The notes beneath the pieces are model-generated. The model was given only the letters and a program-made list of their open reading frames with translations, searched no databases and was not told where the DNA came from. A stretch of 64,000 bases of DNA from Candidatus Poribacteria bacterium. GTDB lineage: Bacteria; Poribacteria; WGA-4E; WGA-3G. The DNA is taken from the NCBI GenBank assembly GCA_022824835.1, contig JAJDZB010000029.1, forward strand, positions 39,999 through 103,998. Reading direction: 5' to 3'. Shown in pieces: positions 2,016 through 60,651 of the stretch. Each line of letters begins with the position of its first letter. Position 1 is the stretch's first letter. The translations under genes and the position numbers were made by a program.

Positions 2016-2759
2016 ATGTTACAGAAGAATTTAGACCTTATTTTTAATTTATTCTTATTGATAGTACTAATTTCTGTTGCGTTCTGGGGTAAATTTGCAG
2101 GTGCAAGGTTAAACCCCCATGAACGTGCAAATCCAACCGCGTCCGGTGCATATTATCGCACACCCGGCAAAAATGGAAAATGGTTTGGTCCCGAAATTAA
2201 CTCGCTCACACTTTGTAAGGACACACACAACGTCTTTAACAATAGAGGCTTTTTTGACATAGTAGAAACGATTGAAAACGCAGTGGTATCTAAGTCTGAT
2301 ATTAGGGGCGCGCTGCACTGGTACAGGCGACAGAAGTGGACATTTGCAGATGACAACACGCCGTGGGGTACAAATGTGTCCATTATCACGTTGCATGACG
2401 ATCTTGGGTGGAGTGAGATAAGTACTGGAGGCGGGACAACCGGTTATCCGTGGAGTGGAATAGAACGGCATTGGCGCGATGGAAATATCATAAGACAACA
2501 AGCAACTGTGATGGGATGGCGACAGTATGCACGCGGGAGAGAACGATGGGTCTGTCCAATGTACTTCAAAATCGGGGGCTGGCAAGGAGAAGACCTTGAA
2601 GTACACTGCCAAACATATAGAACATGGTTCCCACCTGATTGGCAAGAACTGAAACAACGGGATGGCGACTTCGGGTTCCCAGTCGAACGTAAACCCGGGA
2701 TCATCAGCCGCAGAGGAAAACTAACACATAGATGGTATGATTGTATAAAAATCAACTGA
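2016..2759 (+). CDS. Hypothetical membrane-anchored protein.
   Basis: It has an N-terminal hydrophobic segment (IFNLFLLIVLISVAFW). It is W- and G-rich with no recognisable catalytic motifs. Confidence 0.3.
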   Translation: MLQKNLDLIFNLFLLIVLISVAFWGKFAGARLNPHERANPTASGAYYRTPGKNGKWFGPEINSLTLCKDTHNVFNNRGFFDIVETIENAVVSKSDIRGALHWYRRQKWTFADDNTPWGTNVSIITLHDDLGWSEISTGGGTTGYPWSGIERHWRDGNIIRQQATVMGWRQYARGRERWVCPMYFKIGGWQGEDLEVHCQTYRTWFPPDWQELKQRDGDFGFPVERKPGIISRRGKLTHRWYDCIKIN

Positions 2760-2778
2760 ACATCGTTTAGGTATAGAT

Positions 2779-3477
2779 ATGCGAACTATTCTGATCTTAC
2801 TAATCCTCATGTATTTATCCGTTAACAACACCGTTTCCACATCGGCAGATATATGGCACGATGACTTTGATATGGAGAATACCGAAGCATGGAAAAACAT
2901 CGGTGATAGAAGAGTGTGGAAAGTGGTTGATGGCATGTTACGCATTGAAGTCAATAGAGACTGGGCAGTTGGATATGAACTCTATGAACTCATAGCATTT
3001 CCCGGACACCATAGGGATTTTGTCGTTACAATCAAGAATTTTGGGGGTGACAAACTCCGTTTCGGTTTCTGCGTAGGACGACGTTTTCCTGAAACTGCTG
3101 ATGAAGACCCGTTCTATTATGTATTTTTTCCTGATGAAATTAGAGCACGACGTTTCAACGGCAGAGGCACCAGCCATCCTTTTCGGTATAGGTTGTCTCG
3201 TGAACCACGTCAACGTTGGAACACAGACGTTATAGAGGAGATGGAGTTACATTTTAACTCAGGTTTCTTCCTGCTGTTTGTTGATGGGGAATTCCGGACA
3301 AAATTCAAAGATTCAAACTTCAATCGGATAGAGATTCTCGGTTTTGTTGTGGAAGGAATCAACATCGCTAACGTATGGGAAGCTGAAGGTTGGGTTGATT
3401 CGTTCACTATTTCTGGTCTCAACGTCTCAGCAGAAGTTAAGGCAACAGAAACGTGGGCAGAAATAAAAGGGAACTGA
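2779..3477 (+). CDS. Secreted concanavalin A-like (DUF1080/LamG-like) protein, paralog A2.
   Basis: It has a signal peptide. 'IWHDDFDMENTEAWKNIGDRRVWKVVDGMLRIEV' parallels the start of the gene at 1284. The C-terminal KATETWAEIKGN motif is present. Confidence 0.45.
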   Translation: MRTILILLILMYLSVNNTVSTSADIWHDDFDMENTEAWKNIGDRRVWKVVDGMLRIEVNRDWAVGYELYELIAFPGHHRDFVVTIKNFGGDKLRFGFCVGRRFPETADEDPFYYVFFPDEIRARRFNGRGTSHPFRYRLSREPRQRWNTDVIEEMELHFNSGFFLLFVDGEFRTKFKDSNFNRIEILGFVVEGINIANVWEAEGWVDSFTISGLNVSAEVKATETWAEIKGN

Positions 3478-6983: not shown

Positions 6984-7357
6984 CAGAATCGCGGATTACG
7001 CGGAAGGGGTTTCTTGTGCATTTTATGTTTACTTTCACAAGTTGGCGCGGATCTGACTGTTAAGGGGCAAAATATTTACGCGTCCGTTTTTGTACATAGT
7101 ACTCCGCTGGTGTGCAGCCCGTTGACAATCCTATTTCTATCGATATATTGCTCCGCTGGAGCATGGGTTCAGCGATCCTTCTTTCTGTCAATAAACATTC
7201 AATACCTTCACCAAGAAGATACATTCTGTTAGATTGTGCCTTTCTTTGTAGCACATTCTTTCAGAATGTACTTCTTTGTAACTGATCAATTTCATATAAT
7301 GATCCAGAAAATCCTTCCGTGCAAGCTATGTTAACTGGCACGTAATCCGCGATTCAG
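6984..7357. repeat. Pair of 17-bp inverted repeats flanking about 340 bp inside a large non-coding region.
   Basis: cagaatcgcggattacg at 6984-7000 and its near-perfect reverse complement cgtaatccgcgattcag at 7341-7357, with one mismatch. Confidence 0.4.
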
Positions 7358-13554: not shown

Positions 13555-13687
13555 CTACAACTGTGTGCAAGTAATTATATATTTCACCATAACAGAAGAA
13601 TAGCAGTTGTGTACACCCCTCCCTTGTACAAAACTGCAAGCCAACATATTATGTATGATAGCACATGTTCTATATAATGTCAAATAA

Positions 13688-18162: not shown

Positions 18163-18332
18163 TGATCTGTTCTCCTTATCTGCTTATATAGACAAAGTAT
18201 TAGAGGTTGTCCCTCCATATATTATTTATAAAATATAAGTTACTACTTTGGTGGTGAAGTCTTATCTGATATTGTATCAGATATATGTCAAAAAAATCAA
18301 CTCTGAATAAAGGTTCTCTGTACAGGAAAAAA

Positions 18333-18470
18333 CTTGATACTGCTGTAGCACATTCATCCTTGATTGTGCTTCTTTCTCCAACCTTCATCGTCCATTACCC
18401 CTTTTCCGTACCCATTCATCTTGATATTGCTGTAGCACATTCATCCTTGATTGTGCTTCTTTCTCCAAAC
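18333..18470. repeat. Two direct copies of a 50-bp repeat, period 87 bp, in the 5' leader of the MetE-like gene.
   Basis: cttgata(c/t)tgctgtagcacattcatccttgattgtgcttctttctccaa(a)c at 18333-18382 and 18420-18470. The reverse complement contains AAGGATGAATGTGCTAC (SD-ATG-like). The same core recurs at 48293-48385 and partially at 7244-7262. Confidence 0.6.
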
Positions 18471-18504
18471 ACCTTATGCGTCAATTTAACGTGATCTTGA
18501 TAAT

Positions 18505-18545
18505 AGGATCTGGTTCGGTTAGGAAACCGAACCTACCGGCCTGGG
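18505..18545. repeat. REP-like hairpin of the GTAGG-head family, with its left arm degenerate.
   Basis: ggttcggtt-agga-aaccgaacctaccgg is the same element as the perfect 36-nt palindrome at 50333-50368. Confidence 0.45.
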
Positions 18546-18926
18546 AAAATCTGATTTATCAAACTCACGTTCAATTTAAGGATATTCTCTCTGGTTGGGT
18601 AGGCTATATAAGACCGATTTTAGTCCCATACCTTTTGCATCGCTGGGACTTGGGTTTTCCGGGATTCGTGTTCTATATATACCTTCCGCACCGATGATGC
18701 TGATATGTGATTTTCCAAAGCCTCAGAGAGGTGAAAGGTGTATAGTCCGCATAGATTCCAACCAATAGCAAGCCCCAGAGGGGCGAAAGGTGTATCAACG
18801 CACTAACGTTTTTCACTAAATTGACACCTAAAGTTTATTTACAGAAATTATGTAATGATACCATTGCAAGTTTTCTCTTTATATGGTATCATTTATGAAA
18901 CAAACAAAAAATGTCAAGAGAAGTGA

Positions 18927-41296: not shown

Positions 41297-41441
41297 GAGT
41301 CGGGAATCGGCCAGTTTTATATATAGTTTCCCTCCCACCATAAGCAGCCCAACGGTAGGAGTTTAAAAGGGTCGGGAATCGGAGTTCCCTCCTACCATTA
41401 GCAGCCTATCGGTAGGAACGATCTCCGAATCGCGACATTTA
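41297..41441. repeat. Two tandem REP-like nested hairpin units.
   Basis: gtcgggaatcgg...ccctcc(c/t)acc-N13-cggtaggag/aacg...ccgaatcgcgac. Each unit has cctacc/ggtagg arms. Confidence 0.45.
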
Positions 41442-41660: not shown

Positions 41661-42587
41661 CTACTCATCACCCCATGCACGACCACGTTTGATCCATAGG
41701 TTTTGTCCAACACTCAATCTTGTGCGATCAAATATATAATCATCCTGGTTAGCCTCAACCAAACGCTTCCATAGTTCCTCATTATCAAAGATTTCTGGAC
41801 GTGAAGCGATACGTTTTAGGGCAATCTCACCGTTACCATCTTCAATATCCTCCGCACGCACACGGTAACTTTTAAGTTTCTCTGGACTGGTGATACTAAA
41901 GGAGAAACTGTACGCGTTCTCAAGTGCATTCTTTGCCATATCAGTCGCACCAGAAACAGTAACAGTATACATCCGACCACAACGCATCGGCTGCTCCGAA
42001 GTGAAAGTAACAGTTTCTCCACTACCACTCACTGCACCAGAAAGCGTAGGTTGTGCGGGTTCACTCAATGAATCTTCGGTTTTAGCAACAGAAACGTCAA
42101 TGGAAACTGTATCTACATCAACCGTTTCACTGAAACTCACTGAGAGAGTATCTAATACATTTAGTGAATCTTCGTATTCAGAAAAAACCGTACCATCCTC
42201 TGGATCCGTACTGACTACTGTGGGTGGCGTAGCATCTGTATAGGTAAATTGCTCTGAAAGTGTGACAGGAACATCAGGTTTGCCTTTATTGGTTATGATA
42301 ACATCAACTGATTCACCTGCGGTACCTTCGGGTGTTAAAACAGTCAACTCCGTTGCTTCTGTAACCGTAACGTTTTCGCCATCCTTCCCACCGAAAGTTA
42401 CAGTAACACCGTTTTTCACATCAAATTTTTCACCTATAATAGTAACCGTAGTACCCCCTGTCTCTGGACCATCAGTGGGTGACATGCCGCTGGGTACTGG
42501 TTCCGGATTACAACCACCGCATCCCATGATCCATACACAGACCGCTGCAAAAATTGCATGAAAAACAATTCTGCTCTGTTTATTCAT
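41661..42587 (-). CDS. Lipoprotein with IPT/TIG and Ig-like (SbsA-type) domains and a C-terminal LysM-like domain.
   Basis: It has a lipobox (MGCGGC). 'TGGTTVTIIGEKFDVKNGVTVTFGGKDGENVTVTEATELTVLTPEG' is IPT/TIG. The C-terminus 'YRVRAEDIEDGNGEIALKRIA...LSVGQNLWI' is LysM-like. Confidence 0.4.
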   Translation of the reverse strand: MNKQSRIVFHAIFAAVCVWIMGCGGCNPEPVPSGMSPTDGPETGGTTVTIIGEKFDVKNGVTVTFGGKDGENVTVTEATELTVLTPEGTAGESVDVIITNKGKPDVPVTLSEQFTYTDATPPTVVSTDPEDGTVFSEYEDSLNVLDTLSVSFSETVDVDTVSIDVSVAKTEDSLSEPAQPTLSGAVSGSGETVTFTSEQPMRCGRMYTVTVSGATDMAKNALENAYSFSFSITSPEKLKSYRVRAEDIEDGNGEIALKRIASRPEIFDNEELWKRLVEANQDDYIFDRTRLSVGQNLWIKRGRAWGDE

Positions 42588-42878
42588 TTATCCCTTCTCC
42601 TTTTGTCAGGAACATAGTATGTTCAAACTAAACAAATCGTGTTTACTCACAATATCATTTATTACCAAGTTTTATAGTGAAGTTTAAAAATAATTACACA
42701 CTTTCGGACCACGGTAGGTGCGGTTTCCCAACCGCACTGGTACAGACTGTATAATTAATTCAAAAATTTACTATAAAGATGTATGCTTGCATTTATTTCA
42801 TGAATCCTGATTTTTTAAAATTATACCTGCAAAGCATCGTCATTGTCAACTATTTTATCAACTCCATCAAGTTGTTCG

Positions 42879-43730
42879 TTAGGTTGTACGCCAGGTTGTA
42901 CGTTTTAGGGGGTCGTAGACATCAACGCATAACTCCGGACCGAACCCCTCAATGGCTAAGCGCACCGTATCCCCATCACCGACTGCTGTCAGTGCCTCAT
43001 GGTGTGTACCGGTAGAAACAACATCCCCCGGCTGAAGCGTGAGTACGTTCGTCACCTCAGCAAGTAACTCAGGGACAAATCGTGCCATTGAGTTCGTAGA
43101 GAAATCATGTTGAAGTCTATCATTTATCCAAAGATGGACATCAAGCGCGTTCGGATCTGCAACCTCATCTGCTGTCACGAGAACGGGTCCCATCGGCGCA
43201 AATGTGTGCCAGCTCTTCCCTAAAAAGAATCCTCCTGGCAATCCCCGCGCAGAGACATCAATAAATTGTGTGTAACCAAATACACAATCAAGCGCGTTGT
43301 CTTCAGTCAGATGTTTTGCCGTCTTCCCTATTACAATTGCTAATTCAGGTTCAAAGTGAAATACAGTAACATCTGCTTCGGGGAGTCGCACTGTTTCTTT
43401 CGTTGAGATAACACTGGTTGGGGATTTTAGAAAGGCGTTAAACTCACCACGAGAAGGACTATCAGGTTCAATATAATTACCTGCAAGACAAACAAGTTGC
43501 CCAGGTTGTGGTAATGGTGCTTTAAAACGGATACGCTCTAAAGGTTTTGGCGAACCGTTCCTTACTGCATCCGCAATCTTCGGGAGAAGACTGTGATAGT
43601 CTATAATCACAGTCTGAATCAGCTCTTGCGGTGAATGATATGAGATTTCTGATAAAGCCTCGCTAATGTCAACAATTCCATTATCTGTTATCACACCGAG
43701 TTTGTAATCATCAAAGAACGCAAATTTCAT
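42879..43730 (-). CDS. Fumarylacetoacetate hydrolase (FAH) family protein.
   Basis: 'MKFAFFDDYKLGVI...' and 'ICLAGNYIEPD...' are typical of FAH-family hydratases/isomerases. Confidence 0.65.
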   Translation of the reverse strand: MKFAFFDDYKLGVITDNGIVDISEALSEISYHSPQELIQTVIIDYHSLLPKIADAVRNGSPKPLERIRFKAPLPQPGQLVCLAGNYIEPDSPSRGEFNAFLKSPTSVISTKETVRLPEADVTVFHFEPELAIVIGKTAKHLTEDNALDCVFGYTQFIDVSARGLPGGFFLGKSWHTFAPMGPVLVTADEVADPNALDVHLWINDRLQHDFSTNSMARFVPELLAEVTNVLTLQPGDVVSTGTHHEALTAVGDGDTVRLAIEGFGPELCVDVYDPLKRTTWRTT

Positions 43731-49356: not shown

Positions 49357-49535
49357 TTAGCTTGTAACGTGAGTTTGATAAATCAGAACAAATAACTTAC
49401 GTAGGTTGGGTTGAGGAACGAAACCCAACATCTTGACCTATTATAGAACAATACATGTTGCCAGTTAATATTTGATTGGCGTTCCTCAACCCAACCTACA
49501 ACGCATATTGCATTTAATTATCAAACTCACGTTAA
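49357..49535. mobile_element. REPIN/MITE-like nested inverted-repeat element of about 180 bp.
   Basis: The outer 17-bp perfect inverted repeat is taacgtgagtttgataa / ttatcaaactcacgtta. The inner 20-bp inverted repeat is cgtaggttgggttgaggaacg / cgttcctcaacccaacctac, with a GTAGG head. Confidence 0.5.
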
Positions 49536-49671
49536 CTTGTAGGATAAAAGTGCATCCAAAAAAGTGTATAGGTGAATCGTCCATTTTTAGGTATCCTACT
49601 GTCGTTCAATTCTAACAAAAATTATTACTGAAATCAACGATTTCACATAACACAAAAAAGGAGATTCCTCT

Positions 49672-50157
49672 ATGTCAAAACAGAAAATCGCAGCAAGCTT
49701 CAAAAACTTCCACGTCATTGCTCACGATTTAGATGAGACAGAAGATCTTAAAACCGAATGCAAAGAGCAATTGGGTGAAGGTGTTCGTCTTGCTGACTGG
49801 AACGATATTCTCGCCTACATTGAAGCAGGTGGTTCGGTGAAGGAGTTCATTGAAACCCTAAAGATACCACTGGAGTATGTCCATCCGGACGATATGGATC
49901 CAATCCCCAATACCGCCTATCGTATATCAATGAATGGAGAACTGCATTGGGACGATGATCGGCACTATTTCTTCGCAAGACACGATCACAAATTACGTGG
50001 AGATTTCTTAGCACACGATCATATTGATGATTTCCACCTATCGTTGGGATCATGGTTTGGTAAAGGTGGGTATGCACTACTCTTCGGAGATCCAGATAGC
50101 ACTGTTGCCCCTCCAGAACCTGAAATTAGAGAAATCGAGCAAACATCTGGCGGCTGA
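49672..50157 (+). CDS. Hypothetical acidic protein.
   Basis: It has a good RBS (AAAAGGAGA). It is bracketed by REPIN-like elements. A (GCTGAG)x3 microsatellite sits at the stop. Confidence 0.4.
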   Translation: MSKQKIAASFKNFHVIAHDLDETEDLKTECKEQLGEGVRLADWNDILAYIEAGGSVKEFIETLKIPLEYVHPDDMDPIPNTAYRISMNGELHWDDDRHYFFARHDHKLRGDFLAHDHIDDFHLSLGSWFGKGGYALLFGDPDSTVAPPEPEIREIEQTSGG

Positions 50158-50180
50158 GGCTGAGGCTGAGGAGGCTAACA

Positions 50181-50210
50181 CAGTGGCGGTGCCACTGTTC
50201 ATTTTATCTA
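50181..50210 (+). terminator. Rho-independent terminator.
   Basis: A perfect 7-bp stem (cagtggc-ggt-gccactg) is followed by ttcattttatc. Confidence 0.5.
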
Positions 50211-50332
50211 ATACTTGTTTCATACTCTCGTAATGCACAACCGTTTTTAAAGCAGAATTCAACGTTGAGGCGATGCTGATATTTCAGCATCGCCTTGATT
50301 TGTTTTTTATAGATTTACGCTATAAATTTCAG

Positions 50333-50368
50333 GTCGGTAGGTTCGGTTAGGAAACCGAACCTACCGAC
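50333..50368. repeat. REP-like 36-nt perfect palindrome with a GTAGG head.
   Basis: gtcggtaggttcggtt-agga-aaccgaacctaccgac. It sits between convergent genes, immediately 3' of the ADH gene. Confidence 0.55.
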
Positions 50369-50393
50369 ACTGGAAGGACAGAAAATCGACAAA

Positions 50394-51413
50394 TCACTCC
50401 GCCCACGGTTCCAAGACTACCTTACCACACTCACCTGTCACTTGCAATTCCCAGGCTTTTTGCACATCACGCATCGGAAATGTATGTGTAATAAATGTAT
50501 CAACTTTATCTGCAGAATCTTTTATCACCTTCATCAGTTTAGGAAAGAAACCGAGGTTATAGTGCCAATTACCTCGCAAAACTAAACCTTTACGTATCAT
50601 ATCTCTACTGGCTGCAAGTGGGAATTCGCCGCCTTCACCAACAAATGTGACTTGTCCTTTTCTACGGGCTGCATCAACCATTAACCGATGCGCTGCAGAT
50701 GCACCTGAGCAATCTACTGCTTTGTCTATACCGATACCGTTTGTCAGCTCCCGTATTTGACCGAGAATGTCCTCATCAGTCGGGTTCAGCACAACCTCTG
50801 CCCCTAACTTTTTGGCGAGTTCTGCGCGATACGGATGACTCTCCACGCCGATGACACGGGCACCACGATAACTCGCATTGATGATACCCCCTAAACCGAC
50901 AGGTCCCAAACCCGTTACCATGACAGTATCAAGAGCATCTACCTCCATCTGTTCCATTGCGCCAAATGTAGGTCCGAGCCCACAACACGCCATCCCCCCG
51001 TGTGCATAACTCATGTCATCTGGAATAGGAAATAAGAGATCCTCCATCTTATGCATATATTGGGCATAGGTTGCCCCGAAGATATCCCCTTCTACCATTT
51101 CCCGATTGTTACGTCCTCCCATACAGTGGATATGCTCACCGATAACACACATATTACACTTACCGCATGCATTTTGTGGTTGCACAACAACACGATCGCC
51201 TACTTTTACGCGTCCGGGTTGTGCCACTTCTACAACTTCTCCAGCTGCTTCGTGTCCGAAGTGTTCACCTGTATTACCAGCTTTGAATCCTTTATATTCA
51301 GTGCACATCGGAACAGCATGGATTTTGACGACAACAATATCTCCACCTGCTTTAGGATCGGGTTTGTCAACCAATCCACCTTTACCTTCACCAAACATTG
51401 CTGCTACTTTCAT
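50394..51413 (-). CDS. Zinc-dependent alcohol/polyol dehydrogenase (MDR family).
   Basis: 'GHEAAGEVVEV', 'CGKCNMC' and 'VTGLGPVGLG' (Rossmann fold). The start is at M15 of the ORF, with a GAGGTGA RBS. Confidence 0.75.
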   Translation of the reverse strand: MKVAAMFGEGKGGLVDKPDPKAGGDIVVVKIHAVPMCTEYKGFKAGNTGEHFGHEAAGEVVEVAQPGRVKVGDRVVVQPQNACGKCNMCVIGEHIHCMGGRNNREMVEGDIFGATYAQYMHKMEDLLFPIPDDMSYAHGGMACCGLGPTFGAMEQMEVDALDTVMVTGLGPVGLGGIINASYRGARVIGVESHPYRAELAKKLGAEVVLNPTDEDILGQIRELTNGIGIDKAVDCSGASAAHRLMVDAARRKGQVTFVGEGGEFPLAASRDMIRKGLVLRGNWHYNLGFFPKLMKVIKDSADKVDTFITHTFPMRDVQKAWELQVTGECGKVVLEPWAE

Positions 51414-51533
51414 ATTATCACCTCTATTTCGGTATTGAGAACACTGAAACTGCAACCGATTCTCCTATATCAAAAAATACTTTACTAAATTATATAGAAA
51501 GAATTGGTGCTATTTGACTGTCAATGCCTACAT

Positions 51534-51617
51534 GTAGGTCGGGTAGAGCGAAGCGAAACCCGACATGATAGTTCCAATCCATACGTGTCGGGTTTCGCTT
51601 CGCTCTACCCGACCTAC
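51534..51617. mobile_element. REPIN-like element: a 32-bp perfect inverted repeat around a 20-bp spacer.
   Basis: gtaggtcgggtagagcgaagcgaaacccgaca ... tgtcgggtttcgcttcgctctacccgacctac. Confidence 0.55.
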
Positions 51618-51674
51618 AAGTTTAACTTATGCTATTCCCGCATTTGTTACGCCATGCAAATTACGCCATTCAAT

Positions 51675-52448
51675 TTATGAAAGACCCATCTCTTGAAGAT
51701 TTTTTAGACTCATGCCTAAACTCTCAAACGGATCACGTTCATAGCAGGAATCTTGCTCAACAATATACCATTCAACCTCTGCATATTCACATGCGTCCAA
51801 AATAGCAGTCCAGTTAAGGTTTCCTTCACCGACTTCAGCATAACGTTGTGAGTTCCCCACCACTGCCATATCTTTGAGATGGACAATGTGCGCGCGACCT
51901 TTCAACTTACGAATCCACTCCGCAGGGTCGCCACCACCGTGCTGAATCCAATACGTGTCAATCTCACTATTAAAATACGCAGGATCGCTATCTTCATACA
52001 AAATCTGCAGTCCAGTACGTCCATCATCATAACGTTCCAATTCAAAACTGTGATTGTGATACGAGAAGGTCAAACCCCCTTCAGCAAGACGTTTCGCAAC
52101 ATCAGAAGCTTCCTTAGCAAACTTGGAATACCCTTCAGTGCTGCGATATTCACCGGGAAGTCCACCGATTGCTGCGTGTTTGCATCCCCACAGATTATGT
52201 TCATCGATCACTGCTTGCGGTTCATCCTGCATCTTTGCGTAACTTGTGTGTGTAGCACAAATTGTAATACCTTCATTATCAACAATGTTCTTCAATGCTT
52301 CAGGTTCAATCGGTCCAAGTGCTGAACATTGAACAGCCTCGTAACCGAGCTCACGAACCTTTTTCATCGTCTTCGCAATGTCTTCCTCTGTTTTCGTAAA
52401 TTCCCTAAGCGTATAGAGTTGCGCTGCGAGTTGAGTTCCCATATTCAC
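51675..52448 (-). CDS. Sugar phosphate isomerase/epimerase (xylose isomerase-like TIM barrel) family protein.
   Basis: 'QLYTLREF' and the conserved E/H/D metal-ligand pattern (..VHLKD.., ..EQDS..). Confidence 0.65.
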   Translation of the reverse strand: MNMGTQLAAQLYTLREFTKTEEDIAKTMKKVRELGYEAVQCSALGPIEPEALKNIVDNEGITICATHTSYAKMQDEPQAVIDEHNLWGCKHAAIGGLPGEYRSTEGYSKFAKEASDVAKRLAEGGLTFSYHNHSFELERYDDGRTGLQILYEDSDPAYFNSEIDTYWIQHGGGDPAEWIRKLKGRAHIVHLKDMAVVGNSQRYAEVGEGNLNWTAILDACEYAEVEWYIVEQDSCYERDPFESLGMSLKNLQEMGLS

Positions 52449-52494
52449 TCCTTTTTATGGTAAATTATAAAAATAAATTGACATTTTCGCCACT

Positions 52495-52524
52495 CGGTAG
52501 GCGAGGTTTCCTAACCTCGCCGAT
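52495..52524. repeat. REP-like hairpin of the same family, with a TCCT loop.
   Basis: cggtaggcgaggtt-tcct-aacctcgccgatg. Confidence 0.45.
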
Positions 52525-52670
52525 GCAGCGTGTCTAAATAATTCTAAAATCTGATATAATTTGAAATCTGTTTGTGTAAGTATAATAACCTACAAGGCAG
52601 ATGTCAAGACATAATTTATGGATTGAAAAATTCGTTTGCATAAAACACATGATTTTTGCTAATATACAGT

Positions 52671-54741: not shown

Positions 54742-54797
54742 GTGGGTGTGGACATACCGTGGACACTGCTGACAACGTTAGATTGATAATAAAAAAC

Positions 54798-54855
54798 TTG
54801 AAGGATAGTCGTTTTTCTGATATACTCTTGAGAACGACTATCCTTCATCTTTTTA
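54798..54855 (+). terminator. Hairpin with a T-tract between htrA and the downstream dehydrogenase gene.
   Basis: A 14-bp stem gaaggatagtcgtt...aacgactatccttc is followed by atcttttt. The loop is long (19 nt), so this may be an attenuator rather than a full terminator. Confidence 0.35.
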
Positions 54856-54869
54856 AGGTGTGATACTTT

Positions 54870-55871
54870 ATGAAAGCACAACGAGTTATTTGGCCAGAAC
54901 GTGCAACGGTTGATATTGAGACGTTTGAACTGCCTAATATCAAGGATGACGAAATTCTAATAGCAACCGAATGCACACTGATTAGTCCTGGCACGGAACG
55001 CGCATTCCTGCTATCACTTCCGAACGCACGCGGTGGATATCCATCACGTCCAGGGTATAGCAATATCGGCAAAGTCGTAGAGGTTGGCGAAAACGCCAGT
55101 GGTTATACGGTAGGTGACCGTGTCGCATCAACCCACGGACACACCAGCCACTTTGTCTCATCACCGAGTCGCGTACTCAAGATAGAACCATCCGACGCGC
55201 CATCCGAAGAGTTGGTCTTCTTTAATCTCAGCGCAATAGCCTTACAAGGCGTGAGAAAAGCACGAATAGAATTAGGGGAATCAACAATCGTCATCGGACA
55301 AGGTCTCATCGGTTCACTTGCGTTGCAGCTCGCAAAACTGAGCGGAGCAGTACCTGCAATTGCAGCAGATTTAACAGATAGTCGCTTGGAACTATCTAAA
55401 GACATCGGTGCAGACTTCACGTTAAATCCTGAAGATACAGATTTTGCCAAACAGTTAGCCGATGCCACTATGGGGAAGGGACCTATCGTTGTCATAGAAG
55501 CAACAGGACATCCTGATGCGATTACCACCGCTCTGGACGTAGCAGGTTGGGGGGCGCGGGTCGTATTGTTAGCAAGTACACGCGGTGAAACACCGAAAGT
55601 CAATTTCTATCGCGATGTACATAAGAAAGGTCTTATCCTTTACGGTGCACACAATTCCATTCGTCCACGGCAAGAATCGTCACCGAACTTCTGGACCAGT
55701 GAAGATGATGGACGTTTAATGTTATCCCTTATCGCAAATGGACGTTTTAACGTTGCCCCGTTGATAAGCCATCGGTTCGCAGGACACGATGCACCGAAAG
55801 CCTATCAACTGCTTATGGAATGGAATCCTGAATTACTTGGTGTTGTGCTACAGTGGAACAGTGAGATGTAG
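54870..55871 (+). CDS. MDR-superfamily zinc-type dehydrogenase-like oxidoreductase.
   Basis: It has the GroES-like N-terminal region plus 'IVIGQGLIGSLALQLAKLSGA' (Rossmann fold). Confidence 0.5.
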   Translation: MKAQRVIWPERATVDIETFELPNIKDDEILIATECTLISPGTERAFLLSLPNARGGYPSRPGYSNIGKVVEVGENASGYTVGDRVASTHGHTSHFVSSPSRVLKIEPSDAPSEELVFFNLSAIALQGVRKARIELGESTIVIGQGLIGSLALQLAKLSGAVPAIAADLTDSRLELSKDIGADFTLNPEDTDFAKQLADATMGKGPIVVIEATGHPDAITTALDVAGWGARVVLLASTRGETPKVNFYRDVHKKGLILYGAHNSIRPRQESSPNFWTSEDDGRLMLSLIANGRFNVAPLISHRFAGHDAPKAYQLLMEWNPELLGVVLQWNSEM

Positions 55872-60626: not shown

Positions 60627-60651
60627 AACCCCTACCTTTATGGTAGGGGTG
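60627..60651. repeat. Perfect 9-bp stem hairpin (GGTAGGGG family) between the small basic-protein gene and res.
   Basis: acccctacc-ttta-tggtaggggt, flanked by T-rich sequence on the minus strand. It is either an intrinsic terminator/attenuator or a REP-like unit. Confidence 0.4.

Follow-up and report, generated by a model that had tools for sequence, protein, structure and literature searches.

The intergenic regions of a 64,000-nt stretch of Candidatus Poribacteria DNA (GenBank assembly GCA_022824835.1, contig JAJDZB010000029.1, positions 39,999 to 103,998 of the forward strand; below, the window) contain strong palindromes that begin with GTAGG. A reading of the letters without database searches (the sequence-only reading) had listed six such loci and a possible seventh. 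It had taken them for one family of elements akin to repetitive extragenic palindromes (REPs) and to inverted REP doublets (REPINs), which are mobilised by REP-associated tyrosine transposases (RAYTs).

Hairpin classes and their units in the window

All six loci were found where they had been placed, as strong, extragenic palindromes with a GTAG(G) head, and when the listed loci were folded as single-stranded DNA they gave z-scores of -2.9 to -15.6, 60627-60651 excepted. The hexamer GGTAGG occurs 25 times in the window against 14.9 expected, a count reached in none of 100 shuffles. The longer motif GTAGGTYSGGT, with at most one mismatch, is present 13 times against 1.8 expected, and its seven exact matches all lie inside four intergenic loci. 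GTAG with a perfect hairpin of at least 6 bp was found 12 times, against 2.7 in Markov simulations, and 11 of these 12 hairpins are extragenic, within the 14% of the window outside open reading frames (ORFs) of at least 150 amino acids.

The single family of the sequence-only reading separated by sequence into at least three distinct REP classes. Class 1 has the consensus cGGTAGG-N3GGTT-TCCY-AACC-N3'-CCg. Class 2, GTAGGTYGGGTWGAG-N-CGAAACCCRACA, forms inverted doublets with the heads outward, and class 3, GTAGGAGGGAA-N-TTCCCGAC, is present in the window as a cluster at 41299-41436. The stems are 6-9 bp long; class-1 loops measure 4 nt and class-2 loops 9-13 nt. Every class-1 and class-2 unit has the GTAGG head, a conservation that for class 1 is partly by construction, the head having formed part of the search pattern; class 3 and the classes that flank RAYT genes (see below) begin with GTAGG or GTGGG.

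A class-1 covariance model, built from Poribacteria units and run on the window, gave exactly four loci at 33-50 bits. Everything else scored at most 17 bits, the next three matches being the opposite strands of these four loci. One of the four, 42710-42740 (47.5 bits), had been overlooked in the original list, whose six loci are otherwise real. The units are given here with the longer elements (families a and b) in which some of them lie.

18510-18540, minus strand: class-1 REP, CCGGTAGG-TTCGGTT-TCCT-AACCGAA-CC; 48.1 bits, E of about 5e-12, z = -4.4; within the family a element 18488-18571
42710-42740, plus strand: class-1 REP, stem TGCGGTT/AACCGCA, loop TCCC; apex of the family b element 42673-42775
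52493-52523, plus strand: class-1 REP, stem CGAGGTT/AACCTCG; 50.1 bits; apex of the family b element 52456-52558
50333-50368, no strand: class-1 REP, perfect 36-nt palindrome, both strands reading GTCGGTAGGTTCGGTT; 46.8 and 33.2 bits on the two strands
51530-51621, no strand: class-2 inverted doublet, REPIN-like; arms 51530-51565 and 51586-51621, 20-nt spacer, heads outward
49401-49432 (plus strand) and 49468-49499 (minus strand): class-2 doublet in a family a element, the 3' half of the right unit degenerate
41299-41436, no strand: class-3 cluster of three units, z = -4.3
41299-41338, minus strand: class-3 unit, GTGGGAGGGAA, a long loop, then TTCCCGAC
41371-41395, minus strand: class-3 unit, GTAGGAGGGAACTCCGATTCCCGAC
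41412-41436, plus strand: class-3 unit, GTAGGAACGATCTCCGAATCGCGAC, forming a heads-inward dimer with 41371-41395

The palindrome at 50333-50368 sits between convergent genes and has unique flanks; its stem runs on through the GTAGG head (-21.4 kcal/mol, z = -9.8). The doublet at 51530-51621, between tandem genes, has arms that are 97% complementary and a fold of -45.1 kcal/mol (z = -15.6). This doublet aligns with class-2 doublets of four loci fetched from other genomes (L029, L056, L057, and L064; such loci carry L numbers throughout): the arms are conserved, and the spacers and flanks differ. Both arms of one doublet carry the same loop variant, with few doublets sampled per genome.

The possible seventh locus, 60627-60651, turned out not to belong to the family.

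60628-60650, minus strand: 9-bp terminator-like hairpin, ACCCCTACC-ATAAA-GGTAGGGGT followed by TCTTTTATT, directly downstream of a minus-strand ORF

We left it out because a GC-rich hairpin and a T-tract downstream of a gene are features of an intrinsic terminator, and its GGTAGG is coincidental. A T-tract after the hairpin was seen at none of the REP loci and only at 60628-60650.

Dispersal and RAYT partners in Poribacteria

The sequence-only reading had looked to further copies elsewhere as a check, and these were plentiful. We searched 185,579 species-representative genomes with the class-1 pattern GTAGGNNNGGTTTCCYAACC and obtained at least 115 stretches; 101 of the 115 listed come from metagenome-assembled genomes (MAGs) of Candidatus Poribacteria, from many species. 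Several chromosomes contribute many class-1 loci among the matches listed, OZ244616.1 about ten. The window's own alcohol dehydrogenase (ADH)-like protein has best matches of 63-91% identity, several of them named Candidatus Poribacteria proteins. In 105 of 137 Poribacteria class-1 units the free triplet of the stem is Watson-Crick complementary to its partner, whereas permutations give 36 such units on average and at most 51, and six variants occur (TGC/GCA, TTC/GAA, CGA/TCG, CAC/GTG, TGA/TCA, and AGC/GCT). Hence, it is the hairpin that is maintained and not the sequence alone.

Copies in different genomes can be closely similar at unrelated places. The segment 49365-49535 and L029:2642-2798 share 86% identity over 171 nt, and 52455-52559 has copies of 85% identity in L087 and L098; in both cases the neighbour genes are unrelated. 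Conversely, no REP adjoins the ADH gene in four orthologous loci (L120-L123; 83-88% amino-acid identity), where gene order is not conserved. The orthologous spacer of L079, between homologues of 42879-43730 and 41661-42587, has kept the promoter, is shorter and has no counterpart of the 103-nt family b element; this spacer has diverged too far for insertion boundaries to be drawn from it. The copies are thus dispersed, being present at non-orthologous sites and missing from orthologous ones.

The core GTAGG-N3-GGTTTCCYAACC is also repeated two to three times within single contigs of MAGs outside Poribacteria, namely L104 and L112 (Chloroflexi), L043 (Verrucomicrobiaceae), L036 (Stahlbacteria), and L107 (WOR-3). 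The form seen in Chloroflexi, GTAGGTCGGGTTTCCYAACCCGAC, stands midway between classes 1 and 2.

A RAYT gene, which the sequence-only reading had suggested seeking, is present in related Poribacteria genomes, where class-1 units flank it in six loci. A tblastn search of the fetched loci with Escherichia coli RayT (from NC_000913.3) matched L061, a locus with eight matches to the class-1 pattern. L061:2012-2485 encodes a 157-amino-acid protein that matches Pfam Y1_Tnp (1.7e-16) and passes the NCBIfam equivalog model for REP-associated tyrosine transposases (NF047646; 128.4 bits, cutoff 80), while staying below the cutoff of the IS200 model (46.3 bits versus 55). It contains the motifs PDHVH (HUH) and RYCYANPV, which in the forms PDH(V/I)H and YCY(A/E)NPV are invariant or nearly so among Poribacteria RAYTs. 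Its homologues form 91 clusters, mostly on one contig each, and several are named Poribacteria transposases. Arrays of GGTAGGCACGGTTTCCYAACCGTGCC units lie on both sides of the gene.

RAYTs of this clade (clade 1, 154-157 amino acids) are flanked by class-1 units in all six loci in which we found them (L061, L117, L118, L126, L127, and L128). L127 and L128 came from a metagenome collection scanned with a RAYT profile; they were the only two Poribacteria-like loci in that scan, its other matches being distant RAYT-like genes that lack these REP classes. L126 is a textbook case: a unit lies about 65 nt upstream of the gene and a second, inverted one about 70 nt downstream, heads outward. The closest clade-1 pair, L061 and L117, has similar large surface-protein genes on both sides. 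Other RAYT lineages are accompanied by other hairpins. Clade-2 RAYTs (L119 and L125), which occupy the same gene neighbourhood in two genomes, are flanked by arrays of GTGGGA-GRGGCA-YCCY-TGCCYC-GA; the RAYT of L124 is flanked by class 3, the type seen in the window at 41299-41436, and that of L207 by yet another GTGGGA-headed class. Each RAYT lineage examined has its own hairpin class, a pattern that Di Nocera et al. (2013, PMC3733652) describe for REPtrons.

Tandem REP arrays with a period of about 45-89 nt border RAYT genes at L061:1281-1494 and 2468-3096, L117:3517-5622, L118:4638-5225, and L125:2879-3600. In L118, a TnpB gene (L118:2711-3829; 372 amino acids, OrfB_IS605 and Cas12f1-like_TNB domains) lies between the REP array and the clade-1 RAYT gene (L118:4001-4465), and a 41% identical homologue exists in L108. 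We considered an IS605-like unit here and rejected it; because TnpB is found in only one of the six clade-1 loci, it is probably an independent tnpB-only insertion. A second Y1 transposase of 159 amino acids (MADTYTQLYVHIVFS...MPDHIHIL) is encoded on the minus strand at L012:5634-6113 and L061:7019-7498 and is flanked by GCACTCCAGCGGAGTGC and TTGCTCCAGAGGAGCAA hairpins. Hairpins of the window at 18718-18743 and 18770-18795 (AAGCCYCAGAGRGGYGAAAGGTGTAT) resemble these, and the 159-amino-acid protein and its hairpins may be another hairpin-transposase pair.

How the REPs may spread

The palindromes are very probably GTAG-tagged REPs of Candidatus Poribacteria, in at least three classes, which by analogy with studied systems would be substrates of cognate RAYTs. 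This keeps the REP/REPIN interpretation of the sequence-only reading, which is supported by the further copies in many Poribacteria genomes and by the RAYT genes beside like hairpins in related genomes. Each unit consists of a conserved GTAG(G) or GTGG head and a 6-9-bp hairpin. In E. coli, Stenotrophomonas, and Marinomonas, TnpA_REP recognises the REP folded on single-stranded DNA; GTAG is required for binding and/or for the choice of cleavage site, and cleavage falls at CT (or CA), on the 5' or the 3' side of the hairpin (PMC8266576). In Poribacteria, the units likewise consist of a GTAG head, a perfect 8-9-bp stem, and a short conserved loop, and the RAYTs retain both the HUH and the Tyr motif. 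By this analogy, a folded REP would be the substrate of a domesticated HUH/Y1 transposase, its cognate RAYT (TnpA_REP), which would bind the hairpin, read GTAG, cut and rejoin nearby, and so seed new copies. The RAYT gene itself, placed between REPs, would make up a REPtron. The bare units, doublets, and arrays most likely arose by such chemistry. Mobilisation of these units by a RAYT, and the presence of a RAYT gene in this genome, are inferred.

Several findings weigh against RAYT activity as the full account. The 64-kb window contains no RAYT gene, and none was found beside class-2 doublets in about 1 Mb of fetched Poribacteria DNA by tblastn with E. coli and Poribacteria RAYTs or by a hidden Markov model (HMM) search of all ORFs. 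Both REPIN-like doublets of the interval 49357-52524 are of this class. Class 2 fits a REPIN in structure (two inverted REPs with a short spacer), but no RAYT partner was found for it in this DNA. Furthermore, 104 of the 137 class-1 units have 60-nt flanks related to those of a unit in another locus; the spreading unit is therefore often longer than the REP. Finally, perfect direct repeats of 5-7 nt, interpreted as target-site duplications, abut six of nine pairs of family a ends. Since such duplications are not made by HUH single-strand transposition, these family a copies must have moved otherwise, and a conventional transposase is the more likely agent.

The ends of family a are a 16-bp inverted repeat, AACGTGAGTTTGATAA/TTATCAAACTCACGTT, with seven matches in the window against 0.9 expected. 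The nine pairs (at most three mismatches) span 84-304 nt, and two of them lie in the window, both resembling miniature inverted-repeat transposable elements (MITEs) with terminal inverted repeats (TIRs).

18488-18571, no strand: MITE-like element of family a, 84 nt; TIRs 18488-18503 and 18556-18571
49366-49533, no strand: MITE-like element of family a, 168 nt; perfect 16-bp TIRs 49366-49381 and 49518-49533

The first is bordered by a 6-nt duplication, CAATTT, at 18482-18487 and 18572-18577, and splits the module CCTTATGCGTCAATTTAAG. Five other loci contain this module intact, and the empty (paralogous) site of the insertion can therefore be reconstructed. The second element corresponds to what had been described as a 180-bp nested inverted repeat at 49357-49535: the inverted repeat is real, and its extent is that of a 168-nt TIR-bounded element with a class-2 doublet inside. 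Here a CTTGT direct repeat is offset by 2 nt; the relative at L029:2642-2798 has a 7-nt target-site duplication. The cargo of family a is a REP or a REP doublet, and other cargos also occur.

Members of family b are long, imperfect palindromes of 103 nt, TATAGTGAA...GACACTTTCG..REP..GAGTGTC...CTACTATA, with the REP at the apex.

42673-42775, plus strand: family b composite, 103 nt; class-1 REP 42710-42740 at the apex
52456-52558, plus strand: family b composite, 103 nt; class-1 REP 52493-52523 at the apex

In twelve family b copies the REP stems differ and the differences are compensated. No target-site duplication beyond a possible TA was found in this family. A role of family b as promoter-carrying or specific to 5' untranslated regions was considered and rejected, the orientation toward gene starts being 4 versus 4 and no convincing internal -35/-10 pair being present.

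The window contains other repeats as well. A lone family a half-site, AACGTTAGATTGATAA, followed by a 22-bp inverted repeat (54792-54813 and 54833-54854), occupies 54774-54854, just upstream of a gene starting at 54870. The interval 18163-18926 is a 764-nt divergent intergenic mosaic of at least four repeat types: a 49-nt direct repeat, the split CCTTATGCGTCAATTTAAG module, the family a MITE with its class-1 REP, and CAGAGRGG hairpins. There is a further GTAG-headed hairpin family without the GTAGG core, for example TGTAGCACATTC-loop-GATTGTGC. The motif GTAGCRCAWWY has eight matches in the window against 0.42 expected, at 7248, 18345, 18432, 48293, 48324, and 52252 on the plus strand and at 13558 and 41534 on the minus strand. 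Two of these lie within the 49-nt direct repeat (18333-18381 and 18420-18468), and similar units are present in L048 and L090.

The elements could also be ordinary MITEs, moved by a DDE-type transposase, in which the GTAG hairpin is a mere internal structure with no link to RAYTs. The 16-bp TIRs of family a with perfect direct repeats at six of nine pairs, the insertion 18488-18571 into a module intact elsewhere, the constant length of family b (about 103 nt, with TATAGTGAA/CTACTATA ends), and the shared flanks of most class-1 units all speak for this view. Yet in six loci the same hairpins lack these outer ends and border RAYT genes, often as arrays; some units and doublets are bare and have unrelated flanks (50333-50368 and the class-2 doublets); and the family a inverted repeats carry differing cargos. 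Nor did the fetched loci contain a parent, autonomous insertion sequence with family a ends, the one candidate, an 855-nt pair in L085, being a repeat mosaic without a transposase ORF. As a general explanation, ordinary MITEs are a possibility we take seriously and do not favour. Their reading is complementary to REP mobilisation by RAYTs and not exclusive of it, and it probably holds for 18488-18571 and 49366-49533. Some REP shells are true MITEs with target-site duplications, and part of the spread is therefore probably due to a second transposase.

Most of the REP hairpins form the tip of a longer palindromic repeat, which in some cases is a MITE with 16-bp TIRs and 5-7-bp duplications; within the RAYT explanation, this second, duplication-generating transposase would spread the REP as cargo. 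A bolder version, which we offer tentatively and think rather unlikely, makes the REP hairpin a portable module at the apex of longer palindromes that couples two unrelated transposition systems, with RAYT lineages and their own REP classes coexisting phylum-wide. The coupling could come about in two ways: the RAYT might direct REP insertion specifically to the tips of hairpin-forming repeats already in place, or REPs might have been captured once and spread mainly by the target-site-duplicating transposase.

It is improbable that the hairpins are immobile cis-acting RNA or DNA signals of the host that selection holds at their sites, be it as terminators, attenuators, mRNA-stabilising hairpins, or protein-binding sites. 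All units are extragenic, their stems are kept by compensatory change, and two class-1 units (42710-42740 and 52493-52523) separate a promoter-like site from a start codon, the family b element 52456-52558 being placed between the promoter-like site 52607-52579 (minus strand) and the start of the minus-strand gene 51675-52448; according to established literature, E. coli REPs have such secondary roles. Against such a function stand the lack of a T-tract, 60628-60650 being the only terminator-like hairpin among the listed loci, and the near-identical copies among unrelated genes of different genomes. No copies are found beside the ADH orthologues or in the orthologous spacer of L079, family b shows no preferred orientation toward gene starts, and scans of the window with Rfam (gathering thresholds) and for tRNAs gave no match. 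REP units may nevertheless have acquired secondary, co-opted roles, and effects on neighbour genes are possible, for example of 42710-42740 and 52493-52523 in their position before a start codon or of the doublet 51530-51621. That the units are chance palindromes of AT-rich intergenic DNA, for which only their short length speaks, is refuted for practical purposes by the shuffle and simulation controls, by covariance scores of 33-50 bits, well separated from those of the next matches, and by more than 100 matches concentrated in one phylum.

Relation to known systems and significance

The Poribacteria elements are closest in description to the GTAG-REP superfamily. According to PMC3733652, this superfamily shares with them the terminal GTAG, a 6-13-bp stem, and a short loop; sub-families set apart by complementary stem changes; an occurrence as single units, head-out and head-in dimers, and clusters; an extragenic location; and a place beside RAYT genes in REPtrons. 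The comparison with the 24 GTAG families of that survey is one of descriptions, not of consensus sequences. The groups for which it records GTAG repeats are Proteobacteria, Cyanobacteria, Chloroflexi, and the PVC group, and Poribacteria are nowhere mentioned in it. The REPIN-RAYT systems of Pseudomonas and Enterobacteria (Bertels and Rainey 2011; Bertels et al. 2017, PMC5581495) resemble class 2 in their inverted doublets with a short, variable spacer. The Poribacteria RAYTs, found mostly on one contig per cluster and syntenic between genomes, may also be single-copy, vertically inherited genes as opposed to multi-copy insertion sequences. The Pseudomonas and Enterobacteria systems differ in that no RAYT was found beside the doublet-forming class 2, whereas the RAYT-associated class 1 consists mostly of single units or tandem arrays and not of doublets.

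The GTAG head, the hairpin, and an HUH/Y1 gene between REPs are shared with the REPs and bacterial interspersed mosaic elements (BIMEs) of E. coli and their TnpA_REP (RayT/YafM) and with the REPtrons of Stenotrophomonas maltophilia and Marinomonas (PMC8266576, PMC3479197). The perfect 8-9-bp stems and 3-4-nt loops of Poribacteria are similar to the S. maltophilia group-3 REP, which has an 8-bp perfect palindrome and a 3-nt loop (PMC8266576). Those systems have been characterised biochemically, while the Poribacteria pairs are known from sequence alone, and the Poribacteria RAYT is only 28% identical to E. coli RayT.

For families a and b the nearest parallel is the GTAG-15 dimers of Anabaena variabilis (PMC3733652), in which a REP lies at the centre of a longer palindrome and for which empty targets were not found. 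The passage on these dimers is silent on target-site duplications; family a, in contrast, has clear duplications of 5-7 bp and one reconstructable empty site. In their length (84-168 nt), their non-coding nature, their TIRs and target-site duplications, and their presence in many copies across species, the family a elements are like bacterial MITEs, from which they differ in having a RAYT-type REP hairpin as the interior and no parent insertion sequence in the fetched loci.

The sequence-only reading had called the elements uncharacterised for this lineage, which stands: literature searches gave no paper that pairs Poribacteria with RAYT or REPIN, and a search on Poribacteria and repetitive extragenic palindromes returned only a general marine-biodiscovery review. 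The kind of element is well known; its occurrence in the sponge-symbiont phylum Poribacteria is without a description in these searches. The points of interest are the coexistence of several RAYT-REP pairs across one phylum and the architecture of a REP inside a MITE.

Proteobacteria are the group in which REP/RAYT systems are best known, and the way in which REPs spread is still unsettled. The RAYT lineages of many Poribacteria species, each accompanied by a GTAG or GTGG hairpin class of its own, extend the system to a phylum of uncultivated symbionts and provide a natural set of enzymes and substrates for the study of recognition specificity. In practice, REP repeats make up a good share of the intergenic palindromes that confront annotators of sponge-symbiont MAGs; they are likely assembly breakpoints in short-read MAGs and could serve as lineage markers. 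If confirmed genome-wide, REPs inside MITEs with target-site duplications would help to separate the RAYT-driven spread of a hairpin from the spread of the same hairpin by a conventional transposase.

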